A stretch of DNA of 63,841 nt from a virus (taxonomy: Duplodnaviria; Caudoviricetes). The stretch spans positions 1-63,841 of the IMG/VR virus record IMGVR_UViG_3300032088_000004; one strand, given 5' to 3'. The position numbers and the translations under genes are program-made. A model generated the notes under the pieces. The model did not search any database, was not told the origin of the DNA, and was given only the letters and a program-made list of their open reading frames with translations. Positions 2,338 to 31,821 of the stretch are shown here, piece by piece. Numbering within the stretch: the first letter of the stretch is position 1; every line of letters starts with the position of its first letter.

Positions 2338-2519
2338 GGCTTTTTTTCGCTGAGTAGCTTTAAATCGTAGTCCCAGATGTTGTCTCCAACCTTACCGTTT
2401 TGCCACAATACCTTGAACACTTTATTTAGAGCGGTTGAGTGTGGCACTGAGGCAACAACTATCCCAACCCAGCGTGGGCCGGTTGGGTGGTTGTCTTTCA
2501 CTAGGTCACCGACTTTCAT
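2334..2519 (-). CDS. KOW/SH3-like cassette mini-protein, 61 aa
   Basis: ORF track; C-terminus changed to LLSEKKP where the promoter module interrupts the repeat. Confidence 0.9.
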   Translation of the reverse strand: MKVGDLVKDNHPTGPRWVGIVVASVPHSTALNKVFKVLWQNGKVGDNIWDYDLKLLSEKKP

Positions 2520-2706
2520 TGAGAAGCCTCGCGCTTTGCTCTATCTGCCTGCCTAGTGCAATGTACCTGCCATCTGTCATAACGAGCCAGTCATACTCAT
2601 AAGAATCATTCCTTGGCAACTTCTTAACTAAAATAGCAACATAACTTTTCAAGTCAAAATGGTTGCCTACACCGCGAGATAACCTCACCAAATCACCGAC
2701 TTTCAC
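2506..2706 (-). CDS. KOW/SH3-like cassette mini-protein, 66 aa
   Basis: ORF track; MKVGDLV...LLNESR. Confidence 0.9.
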   Translation of the reverse strand: MKVGDLVRLSRGVGNHFDLKSYVAILVKKLPRNDSYEYDWLVMTDGRYIALGRQIEQSARLLNESR

Positions 2707-2887
2707 TGATTACCTCCAACTTAGAGACCACTTCTAGCATCGGCTGACCTAGAAAATGCCCTGACCCTAGATGCTCTTTTGACCAAAGCACATAACAGTG
2801 TGCGGAACCTACCAACGACGTGGAGGTGACAATGCCAGTACCTAACGCCTCAATAGATTGATGCCTCACCAAGTCACCGACCTTCAC
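2693..2887 (-). CDS. KOW/SH3-like cassette mini-protein, 64 aa
   Basis: ORF track; MKVGDLV...LEVISESR. Confidence 0.9.
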   Translation of the reverse strand: MKVGDLVRHQSIEALGTGIVTSTSLVGSAHCYVLWSKEHLGSGHFLGQPMLEVVSKLEVISESR

Positions 2888-3041
2888 TGACTAACTCCAA
2901 CAAATTTTTGTCCATATTGTATTGAGTGTTGGTGTCAAAGAAGAGGACCATACACCTGTCGCTCTTCAGGTCATGAGTTATAATACCAAAACGCGGGGAA
3001 GACCAGCGCGGTGTTTGTTTCACCAAATCACCGACTTTCAC
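2874..3041 (-). CDS. KOW/SH3-like cassette mini-protein, 55 aa
   Basis: ORF track 2874..3113; start moved to the repeat GTG at 3041. Confidence 0.88.
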   Translation of the reverse strand: MKVGDLVKQTPRWSSPRFGIITHDLKSDRCMVLFFDTNTQYNMDKNLLELVSEGR

Positions 3042-3213
3042 TGACAACCTCCATTGCTTGAGCGCTCCAGATTCTCTTGCCCTGAGGGGTCGCGACAACC
3101 ATAAAGGGACCACAAAGGTTGAGGTCGTAAATACTCTGGCTGTCGGTATAATCGAGACCCACCACTATACCAGTATCTCCGCGCTGATTTCTCACTAGAT
3201 CACCGACCTTCAC
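3028..3213 (-). CDS. KOW/SH3-like cassette mini-protein, 61 aa
   Basis: ORF track 3028..3234; start moved to the repeat GTG at 3213; diverged relative of 412..600 (VRN.RG.TGIV...QGKRIWS..A.EVVSESR). Confidence 0.88.
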   Translation of the reverse strand: MKVGDLVRNQRGDTGIVVGLDYTDSQSIYDLNLCGPFMVVATPQGKRIWSAQAMEVVSESR

Positions 3214-3382
3214 TAACCAACTCCAATTCATCATGATCGTTTTCTATCGGTCCGGTGGTGTTACCATCAAACCAAAGCACATAAACGATAGAACTTCCAG
3301 TAATCTTGCTGACGATTCGCGTCTGTAGAACAATGCCCATTCCATCATCGGCGCGCCATCGCACTAGGTCACCTGCCTTCAT
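3200..3382 (-). CDS. KOW/SH3-like cassette mini-protein, 60 aa
   Basis: ORF track; MKAGDLVRWRAD...LELVSEGR. Confidence 0.9.
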   Translation of the reverse strand: MKAGDLVRWRADDGMGIVLQTRIVSKITGSSIVYVLWFDGNTTGPIENDHDELELVSEGR

Positions 3383-5917: not shown

Positions 5918-5931
5918 TACTTATCTATTCT

Positions 5932-6861
5932 TTATTTTACTTTGCGTAGCTTCAAGAGCGCCAACTCTTTTTTCTTGCATTCTAGCATGATGTCGTGCAT
6001 CTGTCCATGATTGTCTACTGGTCTTTTGATAAAATCTGAATGAGCTTGTTTGCGAATTTTTGGGTCGCCGTATTCAAGAGCTTTCGACTCCGAGACGTGA
6101 ACAACGGGAGTGATCCAGGGTGGCCAGGTTTTGGCGGCGAGTTTGACTGCTTCTCCTTCTGTGAGTCCTCCGGTGCAGAATCTATGGTGATGGTAATCGA
6201 AAACAATCGGGATTCCAGTTTTGTGATGAATTTTTTCATATATCTCCTTTGTGCTCCACATTGAAGCTTTGTCATCATTCTCTAGTGTAAATCTCTTCCT
6301 GCAGTTTGTATCAAGGCCGTCGGGATTATTGAAGTTTTCAATGAATCTGGCTGCCGTCTTGTCCTTGTCTCCGTACGTGCCACCGACATGGATGTTGATC
6401 TTGTTGTAATGGCTCGGTTCGAAGCCCATCATGTCAAAGATACGAGAGTGCATGTTCAAGTCTTTGTAAGCCTTCTCTACGACGTGTTTGTGGGGTGAGC
6501 CTAGGCAATTGTAGGGCCCAGGGTGAAACGTCAGTCTGTGGCCATTTCTCGTGGCGTATTCTCCAATCAGCTTGAGGCGCCTTCTAACCTCCCTGATGTC
6601 CGGAAGTGAACTGTACTCGTACTCTGAGGCCCATGGAAAAATGTCAGAGGACATGCGATAGAACTTGATGTCGTTTTGCTCATTCCACTTCAGTATTTTA
6701 AGCAAGTCCATGATGTTGTCAAGGGCAAGTTCTGATGCGTACTTGATGCCTTTAGCTTTGAATGTTCTTTTAATCATAGAACGGTTAGTCATGATGCGCT
6801 TGGACTTAGGCACATCGGATAATGTCATGTTGATACAGGCATAGCCGTAGTTCTGCTTCAC
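5932..6861 (-). CDS. uvsE: UV-damage endonuclease
   Basis: GYACIN, FYRMSSDIFP, RLTFHPG, INIHVGG, LENDD, FDYHHH, AHSD, ECKKKE motifs. Confidence 0.95.
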   Translation of the reverse strand: MKQNYGYACINMTLSDVPKSKRIMTNRSMIKRTFKAKGIKYASELALDNIMDLLKILKWNEQNDIKFYRMSSDIFPWASEYEYSSLPDIREVRRRLKLIGEYATRNGHRLTFHPGPYNCLGSPHKHVVEKAYKDLNMHSRIFDMMGFEPSHYNKINIHVGGTYGDKDKTAARFIENFNNPDGLDTNCRKRFTLENDDKASMWSTKEIYEKIHHKTGIPIVFDYHHHRFCTGGLTEGEAVKLAAKTWPPWITPVVHVSESKALEYGDPKIRKQAHSDFIKRPVDNHGQMHDIMLECKKKELALLKLRKVK

Positions 6862-11565: not shown

Positions 11566-13134
11566 CTACTGTTGCACAATGCTGTGATTAGTCAGCAAAA
11601 GAGTTGCTGCAACGGATACTGCGTTCTTGAGAGCGCATCGAGTGACTTTGGCCGGGTCGATGATGCCAGAAGTTAGAAGGTTCACTCTTTCTCCCGTGGA
11701 AAAATTAACTCCTTCGAAATCTTTCGCATCAGATATCGTCCACATTGTGACATCCGCGGACATGCCGGCATTCTTGGCCATGATGCGAAAGGGGGCCTCT
11801 AGCGCGCTTCGAAATATAGACAAAGCAACAGATTGCTCCTCTGTCGCGAAGTTGGGTGCGATGGACTTTGAGGCGCGCAACAGAGTCATGCCTCCGCCGG
11901 GAACTATCCCTTCCTGCTGAGCCGACCGGACGGCTTCCAATGCGTCTTCAATGCGGTGCTTTTTCTCAATCATCTCTACTTCAGAAGATGCGCCGACGCG
12001 GATGATAGCAACACCAGAAGACAGGCGAGTAACACGATCCTGGAGTCGTCCTGCTTCATGAAGGTCTTCAGTCTGCTGAATTTCGGCTTTGATTTTTGCA
12101 ATAGTTTCTTCAACTTTATTATAATCTCCTTCACCGTCAACGACCGTAGTCACATTCTTGGTGATTTCTACACTACTAGCTTTGCCGAAGTCGACCAGAG
12201 ATACTTCTGTCAGCTTGTGGCCCATGGACTGTTGAAAGAACTTGGCACCAGTGGTGATTGCAAGGTCACTCATGATGGCGCGACGTTCTTCTCCATACCG
12301 CGGTGCTTTGATGGCTGCGACCTTCATCGAACCGCGCATAGTATTCATAATTAGTGCAGCTAAAGCCTGACCTTCTATATCTTCCGCTACGATAATGAAT
12401 GGTCGTCCTTCTCGGGCGGCAATCTCAAGAGAAGGTAAAATATCGTTGACCTGGTCTATTTTTGAGTCAGTAATCAAGAACATTGGTGTCTCATAGCGGC
12501 ACACTCCCCGTCTCTCGTCCGTTACGAAGGCTGTTGCTGCATACCCACTATCAAAACGAAAACCCTCTACAAGGTCTAAACTCGTCTCGTGAGAGCGCGC
12601 CTCTTCGATGGTGATGGAACCGTTCTTGCCTACTTTATCGGCTGCTGTTGCGACAAGATTTCCTATGATTTCATCGTTGTTGGCAGAGATTGTTGCAATA
12701 TGCTTTACATCTTCGGTTGACGCGATTGGTTTTGCGATGTCTGATATGAACCCCATAGCCTGTTCAAGGCATTGCTCTAGTCCTCTCTTAATTTCAATGG
12801 GAGATGTACCTGAAGCAATGTGCTTGTTTGCTTGGTTTAGGATTTCTCTTGCCAGAACTGTAGATGTTGTGGTACCATCGCCTGCTTCTGCATTAGTCAT
12901 TGCTGATACTTGCTTTACTACTTCTGCTCCCGCGTTCATGTGCGGGTCCTCAAAGTTGACGTGCTGTGCTACGGTCACTCCGTCCTTTGTGACAAAGGGT
13001 CGTCTATCCTTTTGATGGATAAGAACATTCTGTCCTTTGGGTCCGAGTGTTGTTGCTACGTAATCCGCTAGAGTGTTTACGCCTTCAAGAACTTTATTGC
13101 GGAGTTCAGTTCCGTGGCTGAGTTGTGTGGTCAT
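11566..13134 (-). CDS. groL: Chaperonin GroEL
   Basis: TLGPKG, VTKDGVTVA, GDGTTT, IEDAL.A, GIVPGGG, GIIDPAKV. Confidence 0.98.
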   Translation of the reverse strand: MTTQLSHGTELRNKVLEGVNTLADYVATTLGPKGQNVLIHQKDRRPFVTKDGVTVAQHVNFEDPHMNAGAEVVKQVSAMTNAEAGDGTTTSTVLAREILNQANKHIASGTSPIEIKRGLEQCLEQAMGFISDIAKPIASTEDVKHIATISANNDEIIGNLVATAADKVGKNGSITIEEARSHETSLDLVEGFRFDSGYAATAFVTDERRGVCRYETPMFLITDSKIDQVNDILPSLEIAAREGRPFIIVAEDIEGQALAALIMNTMRGSMKVAAIKAPRYGEERRAIMSDLAITTGAKFFQQSMGHKLTEVSLVDFGKASSVEITKNVTTVVDGEGDYNKVEETIAKIKAEIQQTEDLHEAGRLQDRVTRLSSGVAIIRVGASSEVEMIEKKHRIEDALEAVRSAQQEGIVPGGGMTLLRASKSIAPNFATEEQSVALSIFRSALEAPFRIMAKNAGMSADVTMWTISDAKDFEGVNFSTGERVNLLTSGIIDPAKVTRCALKNAVSVAATLLLTNHSIVQQ

Positions 13135-24232: not shown

Positions 24233-24995
24233 TAAATATCTCCTTCAGGTTCATTTCCAGGAACTTAACGCGTTCTGAATCTCTATAAATTGTTTTTTCT
24301 ATTTCTCGTACCGTTCTCGAACTATGTACAACCTTCGGTTTGCGGTATTTTGGGTTTCCGTTTTTGTAGTACTCCATGAAGTTACCATAGATACCTATAG
24401 AAGTCAAGTGTCTTTCCACTGCGAATCTGACCATCGAATCAGAGTACTCAAAGTCGTTTAACTGCTCTCTTGACAGAGTTGACTCAGATACACAATCAGT
24501 GACATAGTGAGCTCCGTCGACCCTGTTCGATGTGTAATAGTATATTTTACCCGCGAAGTTCGTAGGTTCTGATTTTGGTTGGAGATATTCATGTTTGCCT
24601 CCAAGGTTTGACAACTCGAAATCATCATAAACTAAGAACAAAGGCTGTGCAGACGACACAATGTCATTCTCTAGTTGCAGACCTGTGGTCTCAAAAATTT
24701 GACAAAGTTCAAACTGATACTTGTTGAGGCCTTGAAACGAAGATATCTTAATCTCTCCTTCGGAGACTCTGATGCTGCTGACTTCTTCATGATTCAAGAG
24801 TTTTCCATTTAGCGCCATAATGGTCTGAAGTCTACTCCATGAATAATCTATTCTCCTGTTTCCAAATAGATTCATTGTAGAGATATCAAAAAACATTGGA
24901 GAGTATTCTATAATTGGAAGGAAGTAGCAGTCATTTAGGAAAGCGTAGGTTATTGACTCTAGGCTCGTACCCAGCACTACTCTTTCTAGTAGCAT
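24207..24995 (-). CDS. Hypothetical protein
   Basis: 262-aa ORF; N-terminal VVLG..L.SI.YA may be a degenerate Rossmann motif. Confidence 0.7.
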   Translation of the reverse strand: MLLERVVLGTSLESITYAFLNDCYFLPIIEYSPMFFDISTMNLFGNRRIDYSWSRLQTIMALNGKLLNHEEVSSIRVSEGEIKISSFQGLNKYQFELCQIFETTGLQLENDIVSSAQPLFLVYDDFELSNLGGKHEYLQPKSEPTNFAGKIYYYTSNRVDGAHYVTDCVSESTLSREQLNDFEYSDSMVRFAVERHLTSIGIYGNFMEYYKNGNPKYRKPKVVHSSRTVREIEKTIYRDSERVKFLEMNLKEIFNEASTTRP

Positions 24996-27205
24996 ACGCC
25001 TCGAACATAATCATAACGTGTTTCCGAGTGTGATGCAAATGAATAGTTGATTTCTTTCCTTGAGGCTTGGCCGTTTGCTCTTGGTAGGCAAGCTTCGTCA
25101 ATGATTGACATAAGGTCGTTGTACATACTTACTGCGTTGGAAGTCAACTCGAAGATTACACCTCCTCCTGCTAAGGTTATGTTCTCCCAGTCCTGGTTCG
25201 CGTTGCCCAACCTGGGCATTTCAGCGAATGTATAAAGTTTCAAACTCGGAGAAGCTCTCACTGCGTTTGCGACTATCCCTTCAGTGATTGGCCTTCGAGG
25301 GCCCTCTGGATCGTTGACATCTCTTAAAAATGATTGCTCGTTCTCATCTGAAAATACTATTATTACCCTGTCAGTGTCGGGTCTCCACGTAATGTTGAAG
25401 TTCTCCTTTTCGGGGATAGAAGTTGTATTTCTCCACCAGGCGACAGAGTCTAGGTCCAAGTTCGCGTTGGCTGAGAGGTTTCTAACTGCAAGGTATATGG
25501 CGTCCAAGAGCATTTCGCTGCCGGTATCCATACCTTCTACTCCCAAAGCGGCAAAGGCAGCTAAGAACTGAGCGAATGGTGCAATGTCAGACACTAATAC
25601 TAATGTTTCTTTCTCACTTCTTGGAAGCTCCTTCGGGCCTACAATCAGCCCCCACTGGAGCTGTTGTTCAGCCGAGAATTGTCCTGCGAATCGGTTTAGG
25701 GCAATCCGTACTGCCTCTATCTCTTGGTCCATGGAACCCGACCAGTCAACAATAAAAAGTATGTCTGTATCTCTTATTTCCTCTCCATAGTCTACCACTC
25801 CATCGCAGTCGTTATCCGCTCCGTCACATATTTCTTCGCTTGGTGTCACTTCCCCGGTGCACAGCGAGGGCTCAAATCGGCCGTTACGGTCGTTGCCCCA
25901 CGCTCCTTGGTGACAATACACCTCTCCGGGAATACAGACACCTACAAGCAGCGTTTCCGGCTCACCAGTGTAGCATGCTTGGGCTAGGTTCTCGTCAATG
26001 ACCTGATCACAATCTTCATCAAAATTGTTACATTCCTCCTGCACTAGTGCTATGCCTCTAATTGGGTCACACACTGGAGGTTCGGGCATCGGAACATATA
26101 CACACAGTGCTGCACAATCAGTCAACCTCATCTCTTGACAGGCTGGGTCCACACACTCACACGTCTTAAAACCTTGTCCGCACAGCAATGGTGGCTCGCT
26201 ACACGGCATCAAGTTACCAACGTCGTTAACAGTACAGAGACAATCAAGTTGTTCGTCTACCTGTCCGTCGCAGTCGTTATCTGCCCCATCGCACTCTTCG
26301 GCTGCCGGCCTAGTAGCTGTGCATGAAATCCAGTTGCCGTCTTCACAGACCTCTATACCCCTCTCGCACACTGTTTCGCATTCCCTGGCCAACTCCTCGT
26401 CAATCAACCCATCGCAGTCGTTATCAACACCGTCGCAGATGTCGGCACCAACAGGGCCACATTCGTCGCACACATTCCTTTGGCCCTCGTCAACCTCACC
26501 ATCGCAATCATCATCGAGGAAATTACACCGTTCTTCGCCAGGCAAATCTGCAGTGCACTCTTCGACTTCCCCGTTTACACAAACCCCAACTCCAGTGTCG
26601 CATGCAGAAACACAAGGGAAGAAACCTTCATCTATCAAGGAATCACAATCATTGTCGGTGCCGTCGCACATCTCCGGGTCGCATGGGCGGCATGGCAGGT
26701 GCTGAAGGCTGCCCTTATCACAAATAATCTGCTGTCTTCCTAGCGTGCCGTCTTCAAGCTGGCACTCGAACCACCTAATAAATTCTCCACTTGTTCCAGG
26801 TGGACACTCCCATTGAGTGTAACATTCGCTTTGAGAAATAATCTCCGGTGGAGGACACTCTGGGTCGGTGCCATAAACGCAAGGGATTTTATCTTCGTCA
26901 CAGACCTCGACAACTACTTGCATTACATCAATTGTTTGCAGAGGGTTGGGCGGACAGTACCATCTCTGGGTACTGCAACACTGCGGATAACATTGGCAGT
27001 ATGATTGTGTTTCCTGTATTGGGGTTTGCGCGCACCTCTCCTCTCTTGTCAGCTCAGGTTCCGGTGGAATCGGAGGAGACCAGTCCAGTACATACACATC
27101 ACTAAATGATGAATCTGGAGAAGTAATTCTAACCCCTTCATCTACTTGAGTCGATACAGTGTCTGTGCATGCTGTTAGTAACAGTAAAATTGCAATTATT
27201 CTCAT
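24986..27205 (-). CDS. Lipoprotein with Cys-rich CDGxDNDCDGxxDE repeats and C-terminal vWA domain
   Basis: Lipobox LLTAC; six E.C(D/N)..D.DCD...D(E/Y) repeats; MIDAS-like DWSGSM and IIVFSDE. Confidence 0.88.
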   Translation of the reverse strand: MRIIAILLLLTACTDTVSTQVDEGVRITSPDSSFSDVYVLDWSPPIPPEPELTREERCAQTPIQETQSYCQCYPQCCSTQRWYCPPNPLQTIDVMQVVVEVCDEDKIPCVYGTDPECPPPEIISQSECYTQWECPPGTSGEFIRWFECQLEDGTLGRQQIICDKGSLQHLPCRPCDPEMCDGTDNDCDSLIDEGFFPCVSACDTGVGVCVNGEVEECTADLPGEERCNFLDDDCDGEVDEGQRNVCDECGPVGADICDGVDNDCDGLIDEELARECETVCERGIEVCEDGNWISCTATRPAAEECDGADNDCDGQVDEQLDCLCTVNDVGNLMPCSEPPLLCGQGFKTCECVDPACQEMRLTDCAALCVYVPMPEPPVCDPIRGIALVQEECNNFDEDCDQVIDENLAQACYTGEPETLLVGVCIPGEVYCHQGAWGNDRNGRFEPSLCTGEVTPSEEICDGADNDCDGVVDYGEEIRDTDILFIVDWSGSMDQEIEAVRIALNRFAGQFSAEQQLQWGLIVGPKELPRSEKETLVLVSDIAPFAQFLAAFAALGVEGMDTGSEMLLDAIYLAVRNLSANANLDLDSVAWWRNTTSIPEKENFNITWRPDTDRVIIVFSDENEQSFLRDVNDPEGPRRPITEGIVANAVRASPSLKLYTFAEMPRLGNANQDWENITLAGGGVIFELTSNAVSMYNDLMSIIDEACLPRANGQASRKEINYSFASHSETRYDYVRGVCY

Positions 27206-27698: not shown

Positions 27699-28399
27699 TA
27701 TTTCTCCATTTTGTGCTTTCTAAAGGACTCAACTGAATTTGGAAATTTGCCCTTAACTATCTTGAGGCATGCCTCAGCAACTTGTTGAATTTCCCACTGG
27801 GCGCCTGAGTGGCTCCTAAGAGAGACAAACTTTAACAAATTGTGTAAGTTGACCGTCCCATAGTACTGGGTGTACAGGTTTTGCGGCAATACTCCCCTAG
27901 CTTGCTCTCGGCAGACACCCGAGTCCATCAGGGCCTTGTATAAAGACAAGCTCTTATTGTTGTGCATCCGTACTGCAGTTTCTGCATTTTCATATCCGAG
28001 CGACATATAAGATGAATTCAGGACTGGATTTATCAAATCATCGGTGCTGGCCTGTCTATTGCTGCCGTGTTGTTGCCTGAACTTCTTAGGTTCATAGAAG
28101 TTAATGTCTATGGATGTGTAACGTCTAGAAATTTCATTATAGGCCCAAGTGCGGTGTCTATGGTGTTGACTACGTATAAAGAGAGGCACGGTAAACCGAA
28201 ATGTGACAGCGCAGTGCTCAAAAGGAGAGCTATGGTTGTGTTCCATAAGGTAATTGATAAGCTTGATGTCTTTTTCGTCTACTTCTTCTTTTTCTGAACC
28301 GAAGGATACCCTTGCCGCATTAACAACCGAGAGATCCGAACCCATATGTGAAATGTACTCAACCGCACCTATCCCGTCTCCAAAGAGGTCAATTCGCAT
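27698..28399 (-). CDS. thyX: Flavin-dependent thymidylate synthase
   Basis: VNAARVS, HSSPFEH, RHRTWAYNEISRRY, EQARGVLP, AQWEI; start moved to MRIDLF. Confidence 0.96.
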   Translation of the reverse strand: MRIDLFGDGIGAVEYISHMGSDLSVVNAARVSFGSEKEEVDEKDIKLINYLMEHNHSSPFEHCAVTFRFTVPLFIRSQHHRHRTWAYNEISRRYTSIDINFYEPKKFRQQHGSNRQASTDDLINPVLNSSYMSLGYENAETAVRMHNNKSLSLYKALMDSGVCREQARGVLPQNLYTQYYGTVNLHNLLKFVSLRSHSGAQWEIQQVAEACLKIVKGKFPNSVESFRKHKMEK

Positions 28400-28709
28400 T
28401 AGGCCTCCGATAAACACCTACAACGTAATTTTCCAAAATCATGTAATGGGTACTGTCCTTTACCCTGACCTCTTGTATCATTGTTCTGTCAATAACTATC
28501 TTGTTGTTGTCAATATTTCCGTATTTTAGGTGCCGGAACTGTTTATCACAGTCTTCAGCAATGTCGATAACAGTGGCTTCTACGTAGCTATCTTCTTCAT
28601 GTTTGAAGTCCTCAGGCAAAAGAACGCCGGAGCTAGTTTCGTTCTTCTTTACGTGAGGAATAATCAACAGATGACGATTAACAGGCTTTAGTCTTGTTAT
28701 CTCAGCCAC
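28389..28709 (-). CDS. groS: Co-chaperonin GroES-like protein
   Basis: LKPVNRHLLI...ETSSGVLLP...ATVI...ILENYVVG. Confidence 0.82.
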   Translation of the reverse strand: MAEITRLKPVNRHLLIIPHVKKNETSSGVLLPEDFKHEEDSYVEATVIDIAEDCDKQFRHLKYGNIDNNKIVIDRTMIQEVRVKDSTHYMILENYVVGVYRRPNAN

Positions 28710-28974
28710 CTGTAATCCTCCCTACAGAACGTTGACATTTGTTAACATAATCTGTCAAGATTTCCATGTCTGTCTCTGACTTATAAAGGCGATATGCTTT
28801 TACAGCTAGGCGCATTTCTTGCTTTGTTAGCCAGCCGTTTTCGTCGTATGACTCTCTCAAGTCTTTGCGTTGCTCTTTGAATGGCTCCATTGCATCTTCT
28901 AAGGCGACGAATGTCTTGATATAATTTGCGAGGTGCTCCTCTTGGGTGGTGGTTTTATCGTTGTTAGAACTCAT
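28702..28974 (-). CDS. GapR/DUF2312-like (T4 DsbA-like) dsDNA-binding protein
   Basis: LANYIKTFVALEDAMEPFKEQRKDLRESY helical pattern; start moved to MSSNN after AAGGAG. Confidence 0.6.
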   Translation of the reverse strand: MSSNNDKTTTQEEHLANYIKTFVALEDAMEPFKEQRKDLRESYDENGWLTKQEMRLAVKAYRLYKSETDMEILTDYVNKCQRSVGRITGG

Positions 28975-29005
28975 AATTTCTCCTTTATTGTTGAGTTGTG
29001 TTATA

Positions 29006-29034
29006 ATAATAGTACATTTTATTAGGTTTGTCAA
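29006..29034 (-). promoter_or_regulatory. Sigma70-type promoter
   Basis: TTGACA, 17 bp, TATTAT. Confidence 0.65.
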
Positions 29035-29037
29035 CCT

Positions 29038-30468
29038 TTATCTTTGTTTCTTTTTATGTGCGTTTACATTTTTCTCGTTGTATTCCACTACAGACAAATC
29101 CCAGCTTGGAATTTTATCCAAGTCTTCGTACTTCTTTCGGGCGACCATTTGGCGCCACTTGAGACTATTCTCTTTTGGGTATACTCCTGTGCCGATTTTC
29201 CATTCTATCTCCTCTGAGTGTTTCAACATCTTCTTCGCTCTCTTATTTAATGGGAAAATATATCGAAACATTTTGCCCTTTATCTTCTTCATTCCTTTAT
29301 GATTCAGAAATTCAGGTGTGAGCCAGAATACTTGCTTCTTAGGTGCTTTTGAGTTATTTTGAATCGCATCGGTGACTTTCTGGTCATGGTTATCTTTAAA
29401 TTCTTGACTGAAACCCGGAGAGCCCTGGGTGTAGTGCCACCTCCAGTTCTCCTTGCACAACTCCGATGTGGTGCGTGGGTGCACCTTCTCTCCCTTGTCG
29501 GTCATATAACTGTCTGTCCAATACTCACCGCCGTAGTGGAAATTAGCGGCCTGGTAAACGTATCCACACTTACCCATGATACCGTCAGCTAGTGTGTATA
29601 GGTATTGGACTTCTGATTGTGGAGGGTCACTCTCTCTTCTTCTCTTATTCTCAACATCTTTAATCCATTTTACCAGCTGAGATAACATCTGTGACTCTGA
29701 GTTTCTAAGCTCTGAATCTAATAAACACATCTTACCGATTTCGTAATAGTCTTGAGAAGTCAAGTCCTTGCTTACAATCTTCTGAATTGTATGCAGAGGT
29801 CTCGTTCCCCACCCTAGGGTTACAACACCCACAAATTCTTCTTGTTTAAATATACCTAACCAAACCTTCGTAAGCCTAGGCATCACGGGAGAATAGTGAT
29901 TTGCCTGAACCAGTTCTGTAGCTTTTTCTCTGGTAATTTCCCTTAGTTCGTATTTCTTGTTGGATGATCTTTTAGAGTTGCGGCTAGCTAACTTCAAGCT
30001 ACTTATGCGAGATGATAACTCATCTTTTCGAATGATTTCTAGAGTCTTCAAATCCCCCATGAGACCGTTTTCCTTCAAGGTTTCTGCGAGCTTCTTAGCT
30101 GTCTCAACCTTGTGGTTTGCGCCTGGTTTGTCCCAGTGGGAACCGCTGAGTACAATAATATAATGAGAGATATTCCTTAAATTGTTCTTTGCCATATTCT
30201 CATTGGTAAAGTTTAAGGTTGCGTTCCAAATTTCATTTTCAAGCTTCTGATCAGCTGTACCTGAGACATCTTGGTGCTTGCATTCTACAATCGTAGATAA
30301 TTCTGAAACGTAATGATCTGTTGTTTTCTTGCGAACGTCTGGCGCGCAATTGGCTGGTTTGTAAGATAACCGGATTGGGTCATAACCAAAACCTTTTAAA
30401 ATCTTCTTCACGACGCTTTCGGATTTTTGACCACTAGCGTTGGCCTTAGCGCCTTGCGAGTCTGACAT
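29038..30468 (-). CDS. PD-(D/E)XK nuclease domain fused to a Mom-like GNAT DNA-modification domain
   Basis: N-terminus ANASGQKSE...TDHY...IVECKHQDVSGTADQK; C-terminus NHYSP, GVVTLG, EIGKMCL, NSESQMLS, YTLAD...GYVYQAANF. Confidence 0.8.
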   Translation of the reverse strand: MSDSQGAKANASGQKSESVVKKILKGFGYDPIRLSYKPANCAPDVRKKTTDHYVSELSTIVECKHQDVSGTADQKLENEIWNATLNFTNENMAKNNLRNISHYIIVLSGSHWDKPGANHKVETAKKLAETLKENGLMGDLKTLEIIRKDELSSRISSLKLASRNSKRSSNKKYELREITREKATELVQANHYSPVMPRLTKVWLGIFKQEEFVGVVTLGWGTRPLHTIQKIVSKDLTSQDYYEIGKMCLLDSELRNSESQMLSQLVKWIKDVENKRRRESDPPQSEVQYLYTLADGIMGKCGYVYQAANFHYGGEYWTDSYMTDKGEKVHPRTTSELCKENWRWHYTQGSPGFSQEFKDNHDQKVTDAIQNNSKAPKKQVFWLTPEFLNHKGMKKIKGKMFRYIFPLNKRAKKMLKHSEEIEWKIGTGVYPKENSLKWRQMVARKKYEDLDKIPSWDLSVVEYNEKNVNAHKKKQR

Positions 30469-30503
30469 AGGGGGGTTCTCCTTGTTTGTTTTGTACTTGT
30501 TAT

Positions 30504-30532
30504 ATTATACTATAGATGGGAGGACTTGTAAA
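30504..30532 (-). promoter_or_regulatory. Sigma70-type promoter
   Basis: TTTACA, 17 bp, TATAAT. Confidence 0.72.
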
Positions 30533-30540
30533 GAAAAAAG

Positions 30541-30617
30541 TGGAGCCTAAGGCAGGATTCGAACTTGCAGCTTCCTCGCTGGACACGAGGCACCCATTCC
30601 TATAGGGTCTCTTAGGC
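30541..30617 (-). tRNA. Atypical tRNA-Gly(UCC) with encoded CCA
   Basis: GCCTAAG/CTTAGGC acceptor stem, ACCC/GGGT D-stem, CCTCG/CGAGG anticodon stem with loop TGTCCAG, TTCGAAT T-loop, U73-CCA; A8 and G33 are non-canonical. Confidence 0.8.
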
Positions 30618-30627
30618 ATACTTGTTC

Positions 30628-31821
30628 CTACTTTTTCAGAAACTTTGATTGTCTCTTGTTCCACTGGTAGGCTTCATTTGAGACTCTATCGTCAGCCAAA
30701 TGTTTGTGGAAAATTATGCGGTCACAAAGGCTGCAGCCGCAGGCCTTAAAGTTCTTGTTTTTGTTATATTCCGAGATGTCTTCTAGGTTCTTTTTCTTCT
30801 GCTTCGCGTACTCGGACAGAGTTGTAAGATTCGCCTCGAAAGTCACGAATATTGTAATTTCATCGCGGACGGCGCTATGAGTTTCTCTTTTCGACCAATT
30901 ACCCTCATTTAAGGGCGCGAAGACACCTCTCTTCAATCGTGTAGTCGCGACTTCCTTACAGTAGGTGTTCTCTATTATCTCGGTGGACCAAGTGTCTTCA
31001 AAGAACTTGTTGTGAATCTTTTCTATTTCGCTCGTGTGAGGCTTGTCTAATACGAATGCCCGGTTTTCGGAGAAAACAGCGCCGACGATGTTTCCAAGCT
31101 CTGATTCGGGAGCATAATAAGAGTGGTTATTGATTAGATATTTTCTACCATATTCCTTAAGCTTTGCAGTGTCGAAACTAGATGTATCATCCTTCATCCA
31201 ATGCTCTGGGTCCTCAATATCAAGCAGCCTCTGTCCGTCGAGCGCATTAACATAGTCTCTCCTCTCCATGTCTCTAGTTTGGCTTTGTGATCTATCGTTA
31301 CTGTAGTCTGCCAATTTTTTGAGAAAAGACATATACTTATAAGGCTTAGAGTCAAAGTCGTCTGGAGGTGAAAGGAGCAAAACATCACAAAGAGACTGAT
31401 GCTTATACTCTTCAATAGCCATCTTATGCATCTGCAGCCTCTTCCAACCTGCTACTCCGTAAATCTCTTCATCTATCTCTACGACGATAGGGATTCGCTC
31501 TCGTCTTTCGGCGCGGACATATATCTCCTCATAAAGCTCCTGCAGGCCTTCCGTGGTTCCTGCCTTTTGTATCCTCATTTGAAGCTGTTTGAAGTAACGT
31601 TCGTTTGATTCTGTGCACCTAGCCAAGTTACCCAGGTCGATAGACTTCAAAACCTCCACTCCGAATCCTAGATTGACACCTTCCAAAAATATGAGGTCAA
31701 ACATCTTTTTGATTCTTGGGTCTGAGTCCTTCCATGGATCATTGTATCCGAGTTCAACAATCTGGTCTTTTATAGCCACTGAATGTGTGGGCTTAATGTG
31801 TAAAACTTTTTTATTTTTCAT
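30628..31821 (-). CDS. Hypothetical protein with a ParB/Srx-like motif
   Basis: PIVVEIDEEIYGVAGWKRL resembles the ParB box II region. Confidence 0.7.
   Translation of the reverse strand: MKNKKVLHIKPTHSVAIKDQIVELGYNDPWKDSDPRIKKMFDLIFLEGVNLGFGVEVLKSIDLGNLARCTESNERYFKQLQMRIQKAGTTEGLQELYEEIYVRAERRERIPIVVEIDEEIYGVAGWKRLQMHKMAIEEYKHQSLCDVLLLSPPDDFDSKPYKYMSFLKKLADYSNDRSQSQTRDMERRDYVNALDGQRLLDIEDPEHWMKDDTSSFDTAKLKEYGRKYLINNHSYYAPESELGNIVGAVFSENRAFVLDKPHTSEIEKIHNKFFEDTWSTEIIENTYCKEVATTRLKRGVFAPLNEGNWSKRETHSAVRDEITIFVTFEANLTTLSEYAKQKKKNLEDISEYNKNKNFKACGCSLCDRIIFHKHLADDRVSNEAYQWNKRQSKFLKK

Follow-up and report, generated by a model that had tools for sequence, protein, structure and literature searches.

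A nuclease–Mom fusion gene and its neighbouring glycine tRNA in a marine phage contig: a candidate cut-and-protect cassette

What might a phage gain by joining a DNA-cutting domain to a DNA-marking domain in one protein, and by keeping a tRNA gene directly in front of it? The question is raised by IMG/VR record IMGVR_UViG_3300032088_000004, a 63,841-nucleotide stretch of viral DNA (hereafter the window, meaning the whole of this stretch), in which one gene encodes a PD-(D/E)XK nuclease domain fused to a domain of the Mom family, and a tRNA-Gly gene lies just upstream. A sequence-only reading of the fusion gene had proposed a single-chain restriction-modification (R-M) system. Here, we consider the locus as a cassette of an uncultured marine T4-like myovirus in which the tRNA, a promoter and the nuclease–Mom fusion would together serve a cut-and-protect function. 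We put the probability of the whole model, in which a predicted DNA marker is combined with its own tRNA donor and a nuclease, at about 0.55.

The fusion gene (29038..30468, minus strand) is defined by the open reading frame (ORF) list and Pfam and encodes 476 amino acids from an ATG start, with the stop codon inside these coordinates. Residues 1-150 (30019..30468, minus strand) form the PD-(D/E)XK nuclease domain, delimited by alignment, the PDDEXK_11 match, AlphaFold2/Foldseek and the ratio of nonsynonymous to synonymous substitution rates (dN/dS). A Ser/Lys/Arg-rich linker at residues ~151-172 (29953..30018, minus strand), shorter in the related protein P0002, is evident in the translation. 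The Mom-family domain covers residues 173-476 (29041..29952, minus strand), as judged from Pfam, a match to PDB 8bv8, a residue map onto Mu Mom and dN/dS. The motifs on which the sequence-only reading relied are all located in the translation: SGQKSE (12-17), TDHY (50-53), VECKHQ (61-66) and SGTADQK (69-75) in the nuclease part, and NHYS (190-193), EIGKMCL (243-249), NSES (256-259), TLAD (292-295) and GYVYQAANF (302-310) in the Mom part. Its layout of a nuclease N-terminal part, a basic linker and a Mom C-terminal part is therefore present in the protein, with both domains found by Pfam.

An assembly or frameshift artefact, the outcome that the earlier reading named as fatal to its proposal, is ruled out by several lines of evidence. 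The independent metagenome contig L111 carries a 476-amino-acid fusion ORF at 92% identity, with gene order as in the window, and P0002 (463 amino acids) is 67% identical to the window fusion with 99% of the query covered. The domain junction is crossed with 0 differences by contigs of three runs that were not flagged as possible sources of the window (X5, 29316-30656; X4, 29489-30180; X7, 29747-30101). The sole indel among these junction-spanning contigs is one additional G in X7, within the C-run immediately before the ATG and outside the ORF; this G (C on the coding strand; window 30469-30476) reflects variable spacing of the ribosome-binding site and the start codon. Between the window and L111, dN/dS is 0.05 for the whole gene, 0.068 for the nuclease, 0.18 for the linker and 0.029 for Mom (dS about 0.8-0.9); the nuclease and Mom halves are both under purifying selection, and the linker is less constrained. 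Because L111 and P0002 carry the fusion, three runs span its junction and both halves are selected, the fusion is genuine, neither an assembly nor a frameshift artefact. The architecture recurs in L111; Pfam supports both domains, and Foldseek supports the nuclease domain. Among cultured relatives, 0 of 107 matching records in the phages collection cover at least 80% of the fusion protein. P0001 was the one longer protein bearing the nuclease domain that was found, which is weak evidence of rarity, and a single 250-nt contig from RNA run X20 (28966-29215, 5 differences) is too little for a claim of expression.

We regard it as very probable that both domains are what Pfam says they are. The match to the Mom family (PF25680) covers residues 173-419 with E=7.8e-48 and 163.3 bits against a cutoff of 27.1, the PHROGs family phrog_1384 (Mom-like) is matched at E=3.2e-33, and PDB 8bv8, the Mu Mom structure deposited as 'Methylcarbamoylase mom', is a direct sequence match at E=4.1e-11. 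Membership of the Pfam Mom family is secure, and a chemistry identical to that of Mu Mom is likely. As described by Silva et al. 2026 (PMC13219725), Mu Mom moves glycine from Gly-tRNAGly to adenine N6 of double-stranded DNA; every one of the E. coli tRNAGly isoacceptors can serve in the reaction, which places recognition probably at the acceptor end. The acyl-type modification assumed in the sequence-only reading is superseded by this work, in which the glycine comes from Gly-tRNAGly, not acyl-CoA (PMC13219725).

Does the window protein retain what this chemistry requires? The same study lists H58, Y59, R111, S124, D149, R151 and Y159 as the Mu residues needed for activity (PMC13219725). In an alignment with Mu Mom and 42 clade members, five of these seven putative active-site residues are kept, with Mu H58, Y59, S124, D149 and Y159 corresponding to window H191, Y192, S259, D295 and Y305. 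Counting against an unchanged mechanism, Mu R111 is replaced by K246 and Mu R151 by I297, two replacements common to the window protein and the rest of the marine clade, and Mu W48 (a dimer residue) and W181 also differ in the window. In Mu Mom, R111K drastically reduces activity and R151A is inactive (PMC13219725). Since both arginines are replaced, the chemistry or the donor could differ from that of Mu. The clade is further set apart by a conserved ~60-amino-acid C-terminal extension and by a different insertion where Mu has a helix-turn-helix (HTH)-like element. The tRNA-Gly context is the best indirect evidence and suggests, by analogy with Mu, that glycine remains the transferred group.

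The tRNA-Gly gene (30541..30617, minus strand; anticodon UCC, G33, CCA encoded) is identified by ARAGORN, Rfam and its homologues. ARAGORN predicts no other tRNA in the 63,841-bp assembly, and 72 nt separate the 3' end of this one from the fusion ATG downstream. A local search with the Rfam tRNA model RF00005 scores it at 37.6 bits against a gathering score of 29; a whole-window Rfam search at the gathering threshold did not detect it. Homologous xCC tRNAs stand 40-160 nt before a Mom or fusion ORF at 30 loci, comprising the window, 10 viral loci and 19 metagenome loci including L111. Every viral locus with a Mom 58-72% identical to that of the window (10/10) has one same-strand tRNA just before Mom, and a tRNA-Gly occurs in 0 of the other 70 viral loci. 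Locus L113 holds a truncated tRNA copy at its contig edge (detected by nhmmer), and two clade exceptions without the tRNA, L112 and L126, are both cut by contig ends. Of the 22 base pairs compared for covariation, 5 show compensatory double changes, so the molecule is selected as a folded tRNA.

The pattern of substitution within the tRNA is informative about what is selected. The 30 loci reduce to 20 distinct sequences, and in these U73, G1:C72 and C2:G71 are each present in 20/20, all seven acceptor pairs are kept, and the triplet C35-C36-A37 (CCA) occurs in every anticodon loop printed. The determinants recognized by GlyRS are given as G1-C72, the second acceptor pair, U73, C35 and C36 (PMC7826273). 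Position 34, by comparison, varies among U, C and A, and the window has UCC where L111 has ACC though the fusion proteins are 92% identical. The anticodon loop is a 7-nt loop with U33 in 4 of the distinct sequences, has G33 in 8 (including the window) and C33 in 1, and is 8 nt long in 7. A 7-nt anticodon loop with U33 is near-universal in elongator tRNAs. Position 8 is A in 10/20. Glycine codon use (GGA 0.30, GGC 0.32, GGG 0.10, GGT 0.29) gives no translational reason for the CCC or ACC anticodons of relatives. The simplest reading is that the tRNA has been selected for glycine charging, not decoding, and would act as a dedicated donor for Mom. That it serves Mom rather than translation seems reasonably probable.

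A plainer account holds that the tRNA-Gly is an ordinary phage tRNA, which supplements codon use or replaces a host tRNA cleaved by defence systems and owes its place beside Mom to inherited gene order, and that Mom draws on host Gly-tRNA, as in Mu. Several features speak for this account and against a dedicated donor. The cloverleaf is canonical and the Rfam model recognizes it; the phage tRNAs have a canonical T-loop (GTTCGA) and D-loop (GG); and the 4 distinct sequences with a canonical 7-nt U33 loop, taken with these two loops, mean that use in translation is possible. GGA and GGG together make up 40% of glycine codons, and the variation of the anticodon loop could itself be an escape from anticodon nucleases. 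The contig is probably incomplete, so that the description of this tRNA as the only one holds for 63.8 kb, and others may lie elsewhere. Most Mom genes (50/89 scored) have no adjacent tRNA, and no tRNA-Gly is found beside Mom in Mu, Melnitz, ET-ABTNL-9 or Y8A. L121 lacks the tRNA despite 2.4 kb of upstream sequence and has a different protein module, module B (described below), there instead. Finally, the loci that bear the tRNA all fall within a single syntenic lineage (RNR 72-99% identical) with the order RNR, variable ORF, tRNA, Mom, 110-amino-acid ORF, GroES and ThyX. The adjacency counts are therefore not independent, inheritance of this order explains part of them, and the argument for the tRNA consequently rests on the substitution pattern within it.

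It is this pattern that an ordinary tRNA accommodates poorly. Close relatives differ at position 34, which may be U, C or A (UCC versus ACC at 92% protein identity), 16/20 lack a 7-nt U33 loop, and the 7 with 8-nt loops would be unfit for normal triplet decoding. C35, C36, U73, G1:C72 and C2:G71 are fixed while the stems covary, as expected if charging, not decoding, is selected. No second tRNA accompanies it on the 63.8 kb, and the amino acid that it specifies is precisely the Mom co-substrate. We therefore consider an ordinary tRNA rather unlikely.

Other observations concern the tRNA and its surroundings. The possibility that it is a remnant of a prophage attachment site was rejected, as it is full length, covaries and sits inside a lytic-type replication and nucleotide-metabolism module. 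In run X4, a 151-nt contig at 30587-30617 carries the tRNA 5' part followed by the anticodon arm of a relative (a CCC-type loop), so that this sample contained strains with more than one variant of the tRNA. In L121, the Mom frame (2372-3274) is broken by a stop into ORFs at 2372-3112 and 3116-3274, which indicates a decaying copy or a sequencing error. In L065 and L067, a tRNA-Leu(UAA) at 5930-6013 ends 12 nt before the Mom ATG of a different Mom clade (47% identity); this may be chance, or certain relatives of Mom may draw on other aminoacyl-tRNAs. A phage tRNA next to mom is not mentioned in the literature searched, which included the main texts of PMC13219725 and the 2023 preprint and excluded supplements, where the metagenome mining of PMC13219725 could bear on the matter.

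Three elements occupy the space between the tRNA and the fusion. A T-run (30534..30539, minus strand) lies directly 3' of the tRNA, and a T-rich stretch is also present in the related loci printed. A sigma-70-like promoter, TTTACA-17-TATAAT (30504..30532, minus strand), follows, and the sequence has a ribosome-binding site, AAGGAG (30478..30483, minus strand), 9 nt before the ATG. The promoter matches the consensus at 11/12 positions, and a TTTACA/TTGACA element with a 16-18-nt spacer and TAnnnT lies between tRNA and Mom in 17/20 distinct related loci, so the earlier suggestion that the gene has its own promoter is supported. Because this promoter stands between the two genes, the tRNA is transcribed from further upstream.

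Turning to the other half of the protein, is the N-terminal domain a working nuclease? PDDEXK_11 (PF20472) matches residues 9-85; the score is 24.5 bits when the whole protein is scanned and rises to 28.2 bits for the isolated domain, both above the cutoff of 23.7. A HMMER search with residues 1-167 against 1.84 billion representatives yielded 13 relatives of 141-172 amino acids, all stand-alone. In the resulting 14-member alignment, E62, K64, Q66, G70, T71, D73 and K75 never vary, and conservation at E17 and D51 is 90% or higher. The catalytic candidates are E17, D51, E62 and K64, together with Q66 and the G70-T71-x-D73-x-K75 patch. They form the classic constellation of a helix Glu, a strand Asp and a strand Glu-x-Lys, and the catalytic D...(D/E)xK is retained. 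All 14 family members match PDDEXK_11 (best E=2.2e-12), 4 match Mrr_cat weakly (best E=5.9e-4), and 2 match DpnII/MboI models (E to 6.2e-6). The intact catalytic set argues for an active enzyme and suggests that the domain is probably catalytic.

Structure prediction is consistent with this assignment. The AlphaFold2 model of the nuclease domain has a predicted local distance difference test (pLDDT) score of 92.6 and a predicted template modelling (pTM) score of 0.87, and its secondary structure (H5-26, E52-54, E59-65, H75-86, E102-108) fits the alpha-beta-beta-beta-alpha-beta core. The top Foldseek neighbours are the Can2 nuclease domain (probability 0.99, template modelling (TM) score 0.52), BstEII-DNA (0.97) and AF1548 (0.90), and PspGI, McrC, NucS/EndoMS, Mus81 and MspJI follow. 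On the negative side, no nuclease fold match in Foldseek reaches E <= 0.001, the best TM being 0.52, and a sequence-profile search of the PDB with the nuclease family returned nothing significant. Given the lack of a Foldseek match at that threshold, the family is a distinct small branch of the PD-(D/E)XK superfamily.

The sequence-only reading had kept in reserve the idea that the nuclease fold is a DNA-targeting module alone, a non-cutting domain that brings Mom to DNA or to particular sites on it. The domain is small (~150 amino acids) with no separate recognition domain, as such a module might be, and inactive PD-(D/E)XK folds that bind DNA without cutting exist. Mu Mom, moreover, needs extra DNA-binding elements, its HTH-like insertion (PMC13219725). 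The residues E17, D51, E62, K64 and Q66, however, are conserved across the 14 members, fused ones included, and degenerate modules normally lose such residues. Most Mom enzymes also work without this domain, and the family pairs with methyltransferases too, in R-M order. A purely targeting role is accordingly quite improbable.

What the nuclease does may be read from the company that its relatives keep. Across the 41 collected loci, representing 29 distinct nuclease genes, we recorded partners as same-strand genes located downstream. The nuclease is fused to Mom in 2/29 (the window and L111), abuts Mom with overlapping ends in 6/29 (L074, L079, L161, L163, L173 and L184), and has Mom 4.35 kb downstream in 1/29 (L044/L045/L160). 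A phrog_799 DNA methyltransferase is the partner in 15/29 (13 abutting, 2 with one gene between) and an abutting Dam-family N6-adenine methyltransferase in 3/29; no modifier was detected in 2/29 (L081 and L089). In all, a modifier lies downstream of 27/29 distinct nuclease genes and is fused or directly abutting in 24. Partner identities come from Pfam for Dam (PF05869, E about 1e-32) and from phrog_799 (E about 1e-50), and the phrog_799 member in L087 also weakly matches Pfam Dam and EcoRI_methylase, a tie to adenine methylases. The Mom-linked cases came from Mom-seeded searches and are a biased sample; the unbiased sample consists of the nuclease-seeded loci L081-L110, with 20 distinct sequences. 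Here, a methyltransferase lies just downstream in 18/20 distinct stand-alone genes.

These associations suggest that the nuclease family acts like the R gene of a compact R-M pair, in which M may be a methyltransferase or Mom, and the window gene is best read as the fused form of a nuclease-then-Mom operon. Because the nuclease constantly lies beside an N6-adenine modifier, it is most simply a modification-blocked enzyme. An R-M logic for the fusion thus stands at somewhat better than even odds. The earlier proposal of marking self and cutting unmarked DNA gains from the pairing of the family with N6-adenine modifiers (18/20 nuclease-seeded sequences) and loses its novelty, as the idea had already been published (Iyer et al. 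2021).

The opposite dependence, in which the nuclease is modification-dependent (Mrr-like) and attacks foreign-marked DNA, draws on the weak Mrr_cat matches of 4/14 members (best E=5.9e-4) and on McrC and MspJI among the fold matches. Mrr_cat is, however, a generic catalytic core, the DpnII/MboI matches are similar or better (6.2e-6), and a nuclease that always shares its operon with a modifier is far more readily explained as one that modification blocks. Of the alternatives, this one appears very improbable.

More weight attaches to the view that the nuclease is a selfish or mobile endonuclease, either of homing type or the R half of a mobile R-M pair, that became fused in a variable slot upstream of Mom and is independent of the Mom mark. 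We tallied the upstream context of 107 distinct Mom genes in 161 loci and scored the 89 with at least 600 nt upstream. None of the scored features is present in 50/89, an xCC tRNA alone in 19/89, a fused nuclease plus tRNA in 2/89, an abutting PDDEXK_11-type gene in 4/89, an abutting module B gene in 7/89, a distant Mom paralogue in 6/89 and a tRNA-Leu in 1/89. Two results in particular detract from the R-M logic: nuclease linkage is a minority trait, with a nuclease-like gene fused or abutting in 13/89 Mom genes, and Mom lies within 6 kb in 0/30 nuclease-seeded viral loci. The slot also accepts two unrelated modules, the PDDEXK_11 type and module B (P0003, L112 and L121), and a hypervariable gene lies between RNR and Mom.

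Module B is an alternative N-terminal module found in L112 and in P0003, whose Mom part shares 77% identity with that of the window protein. It is also seen at L121 and as stand-alone proteins of 190-196 amino acids (22 clusters). In profile searches it matched no Pfam family and gave no significant PDB match, and its hhalign probability against the PDDEXK_11-type family is 0.2-0.4%. Atlas scores are below 0.9, with RE_ScaI in 21% of the members of one cluster. Solely on the basis of its invariant residues, P81-D82 and E92-x-K94, module B is a putative nuclease.

Against a mobile nuclease with no tie to the mark stand the adenine modifier downstream of 27/29 distinct genes (24 fused or abutting), an association not expected of a nuclease that lacks a protecting partner, and the strong purifying selection that acts on the fused nuclease. 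There is also some overlap between the two views, as R-M pairs are themselves mobile. On balance, we judge an independent mobile nuclease improbable, and a nuclease acting as the R component of the fusion is retained.

Two further features of Mom-bearing loci were observed. In some loci, the main Mom gene is immediately preceded by a distant Mom paralogue (~240 amino acids, scoring 30-37 bits against the clade profile), so that the two form a tandem pair; such Mom-like pairs occur in L023, L029, L030, L031, L040 and L154 and duplicates. GATC is the sole strongly depleted 4-bp palindrome in the window, with 78 observed versus 229.7 expected (observed/expected (O/E) 0.34, z = -10). GATC was considered as the nuclease site and rejected, as depletion fails to track nuclease presence across locus classes: O/E is 0.26 for solo-Mom loci without a nuclease, 0.29 for nuclease+Mom, 0.62 for the tRNA-Gly solo-Mom clade and 0.70 for nuclease+methyltransferase. 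GATC is depleted in Mom-bearing phage loci generally (O/E 0.26-0.62), with or without a nuclease, and this may reflect GATC-specific restriction in hosts.

Taken together, the proposed cassette would work as follows. Firstly, the Mom domain would transfer glycine from Gly-tRNA to the N6 of adenine in double-stranded DNA, and the product would rearrange to N6-carbamoylmethyl-adenine; this step is shown for Mu Mom and predicted by analogy for the window protein. Secondly, as comparative sequence suggests, the phage tRNA-Gly would be the main glycine donor, competent for GlyRS and, in its anticodon loop, unfit for normal decoding. A dedicated tRNA of this kind would reserve activated glycine for Mom, out of reach of translation. 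Thirdly, the PD-(D/E)XK domain would cut DNA that lacks the N6-adenine mark, from the host or a competing phage, and spare marked phage DNA, a role to which its conserved catalytic residues and the partners of its family point. Finally, the fusion would ensure that the nuclease is never made without its protector. More tentatively, at a little under even odds, the tRNA-Gly may be a viral tRNA for DNA modification, which host GlyRS would charge and a defective anticodon loop would keep off the ribosome, and which, with Mom and the fused nuclease, completes a self-contained three-part cassette.

The genome around the cassette is that of a tailed phage. The assembly is a single 63,841-bp contig with all long ORFs on one strand, and it encodes a tail sheath, a major head protein, a 1144-amino-acid DNA polymerase, a UvsX-like recombinase, GroEL, GroES and ThyX. 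The head protein is of a distant gp23 type; its nearest cultured relatives, 38-46% identical, come from Flavobacterium, Microcystis and Rhodothermus myoviruses with genomes of 130-190 kb. A search of the contig ends for exact repeats of 11-400 nt gave none. In view of the genome sizes of the capsid relatives and the lack of a terminal repeat, the contig is probably a fragment of a larger (130-190-kb) marine T4-like phage genome. The stretch occurs in marine and seawater metagenomes of many studies.

Several neighbouring genes have features of their own. Just upstream of the tRNA, a 397-amino-acid ORF (30628-31821, minus strand) is 35% identical to its L111 counterpart; RNR, the Mom fusion and ThyX around it are 92-99% identical to those of L111, so that the position looks hypervariable. 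Leads to the identity of this ORF are weak (TilS_C at E=9e-4; ParB-like neighbours with TM < 0.5 from a low-confidence model). Directly downstream of Mom lies an ORF (28702-29034, minus strand) of 110 amino acids as listed and probably about 90, with a DUF6664 match at E=0.018. It is kept throughout the tRNA-Mom lineage at 53-93% identity, and a homologue (40-43%) lies two genes upstream of the nuclease in the nuclease+Dam loci L094-L096 and L110. A Cys-rich protein of 739 amino acids (24986-27205, minus strand) has many C-D-G-x-D-N-D-C-D-G-like repeats, and its L111 counterpart has 753 amino acids. GroEL (11566-13134, minus strand) matches phrog_5725 at E=1.7e-143, and the GroES-like gene (28389-28709, minus strand) matches Cpn10 at E=2.3e-5.

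Why the locus matters follows from the history of Mom, which puzzled the field for 40 years before Gly-tRNAGly emerged as its co-substrate (preprint 2023, paper 2026). A tRNA-Gly before Mom offers independent, purely genomic corroboration that tRNA dependence reaches as far as this distant marine branch of Mom enzymes. Beyond Mom, it hints at a novel function for tRNA genes in viruses, where codon usage or the replacement of host tRNAs cleaved in defence is the usual explanation. If the model is true, this would be the first R-M-like system with a modification arm that runs on a self-supplied aminoacyl-tRNA. The exchange of methyltransferase and Mom beside one nuclease family is the best available comparative argument for nuclease–Mom proteins as R-M analogues. 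The fusion is a further member of a class that has stood as a prediction since 2021 (Iyer et al.), and the present analysis names concrete residues for it. The cassette combines known kinds of element, namely Mom hypermodification, R-M fusions and non-proteogenic tRNAs, and the dedicated-looking tRNA is the addition.

Comparison with known systems shows what is shared and what is not. The window protein resembles Mu Mom in its Pfam family (163 bits), its match to 8bv8 and five active-site residues, and in being phage-encoded and presumably anti-restriction. It differs in its ~30% identity, in the replacement of R111 by Lys and R151 by Ile and the loss of W48/W181, and in a longer, different region in place of the Mu HTH-like insertion plus a C-terminal extension. 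Mu, moreover, has the Com translational regulator upstream and no tRNA, whereas the window has the nuclease fusion and a tRNA-Gly.

The closest parallel for the fusion as a whole is found in jumbo phages. For the restriction endonuclease (REase)–Mom fusions of group 2 jumbo phages, momylation is predicted to protect phage DNA while the endonuclease would attack host or superinfecting DNA (Iyer et al. 2021, PMC7824862). The cut-and-protect idea is thus not new, having been predicted in that paper (PMC7824862). The architecture class and the logic are the same, and the window phage is also a T4-type myovirus; the passages of PMC7824862 on these fusions assume an acyl-CoA donor and contain no tRNA. 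The likeness is drawn from passage text at the level of architecture and logic, and the window contig is 63.8 kb.

Among R-M systems, the pairs of this nuclease with an N6-adenine methyltransferase (L082-L110) share the nuclease family, the gene order, the overlapping ends and the adenine N6 target. They differ in using an S-adenosylmethionine (SAM) methyltransferase (Dam PF05869 or phrog_799), in having separate genes and in lacking a tRNA. Type IIC/IIG enzymes such as MmeI and BcgI combine a nuclease and a SAM methyltransferase in one chain with a shared target-recognition domain. Like them, the window protein holds both activities in one polypeptide; unlike them, its modifier is a predicted tRNA-dependent GNAT, and no shared recognition domain was detected. 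Pfam found no methyltransferase family in the fusion protein. Of the suggestion that the fusion is a non-methyl analogue of type IIC enzymes, the joining of two domains in one polypeptide survives; with no SAM methyltransferase, it is an analogue at most, not a member.

The tRNA has a functional counterpart in staphylococci, where non-proteogenic tRNAGly keep the GlyRS determinants and feed Fem transferases (Rietmeyer et al. 2021, PMC7826273), and Silva et al. compare Mom structurally with FemX (PMC13219725). In both cases, an extra tRNAGly retains the GlyRS determinants, has features against translation and serves, or in the phage would serve, a tRNA-dependent transferase. In the staphylococcal tRNAs the departures lie in the D and T arms (T-loop UGC/UGU, weak EF-Tu binding), whereas the phage tRNAs have a canonical T-loop and depart from the norm in the anticodon loop (G33/C33, 8-nt) and at position 8. 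The acceptor would be DNA in place of a peptidoglycan precursor, and a virus carries the gene; the likeness is one of function, not of lineage.

The broader strategy also has precedents. In T4, with hydroxymethylcytosine and EndoII/EndoIV, and in chloroviruses, with their R-M pairs, the virus marks its own DNA and degrades unmarked host DNA. Those systems modify cytosine at the nucleotide level or rely on methylation. In the window phage, by contrast, the mark would be a post-replicative adenine hypermodification, and the nuclease and the marker are one protein.

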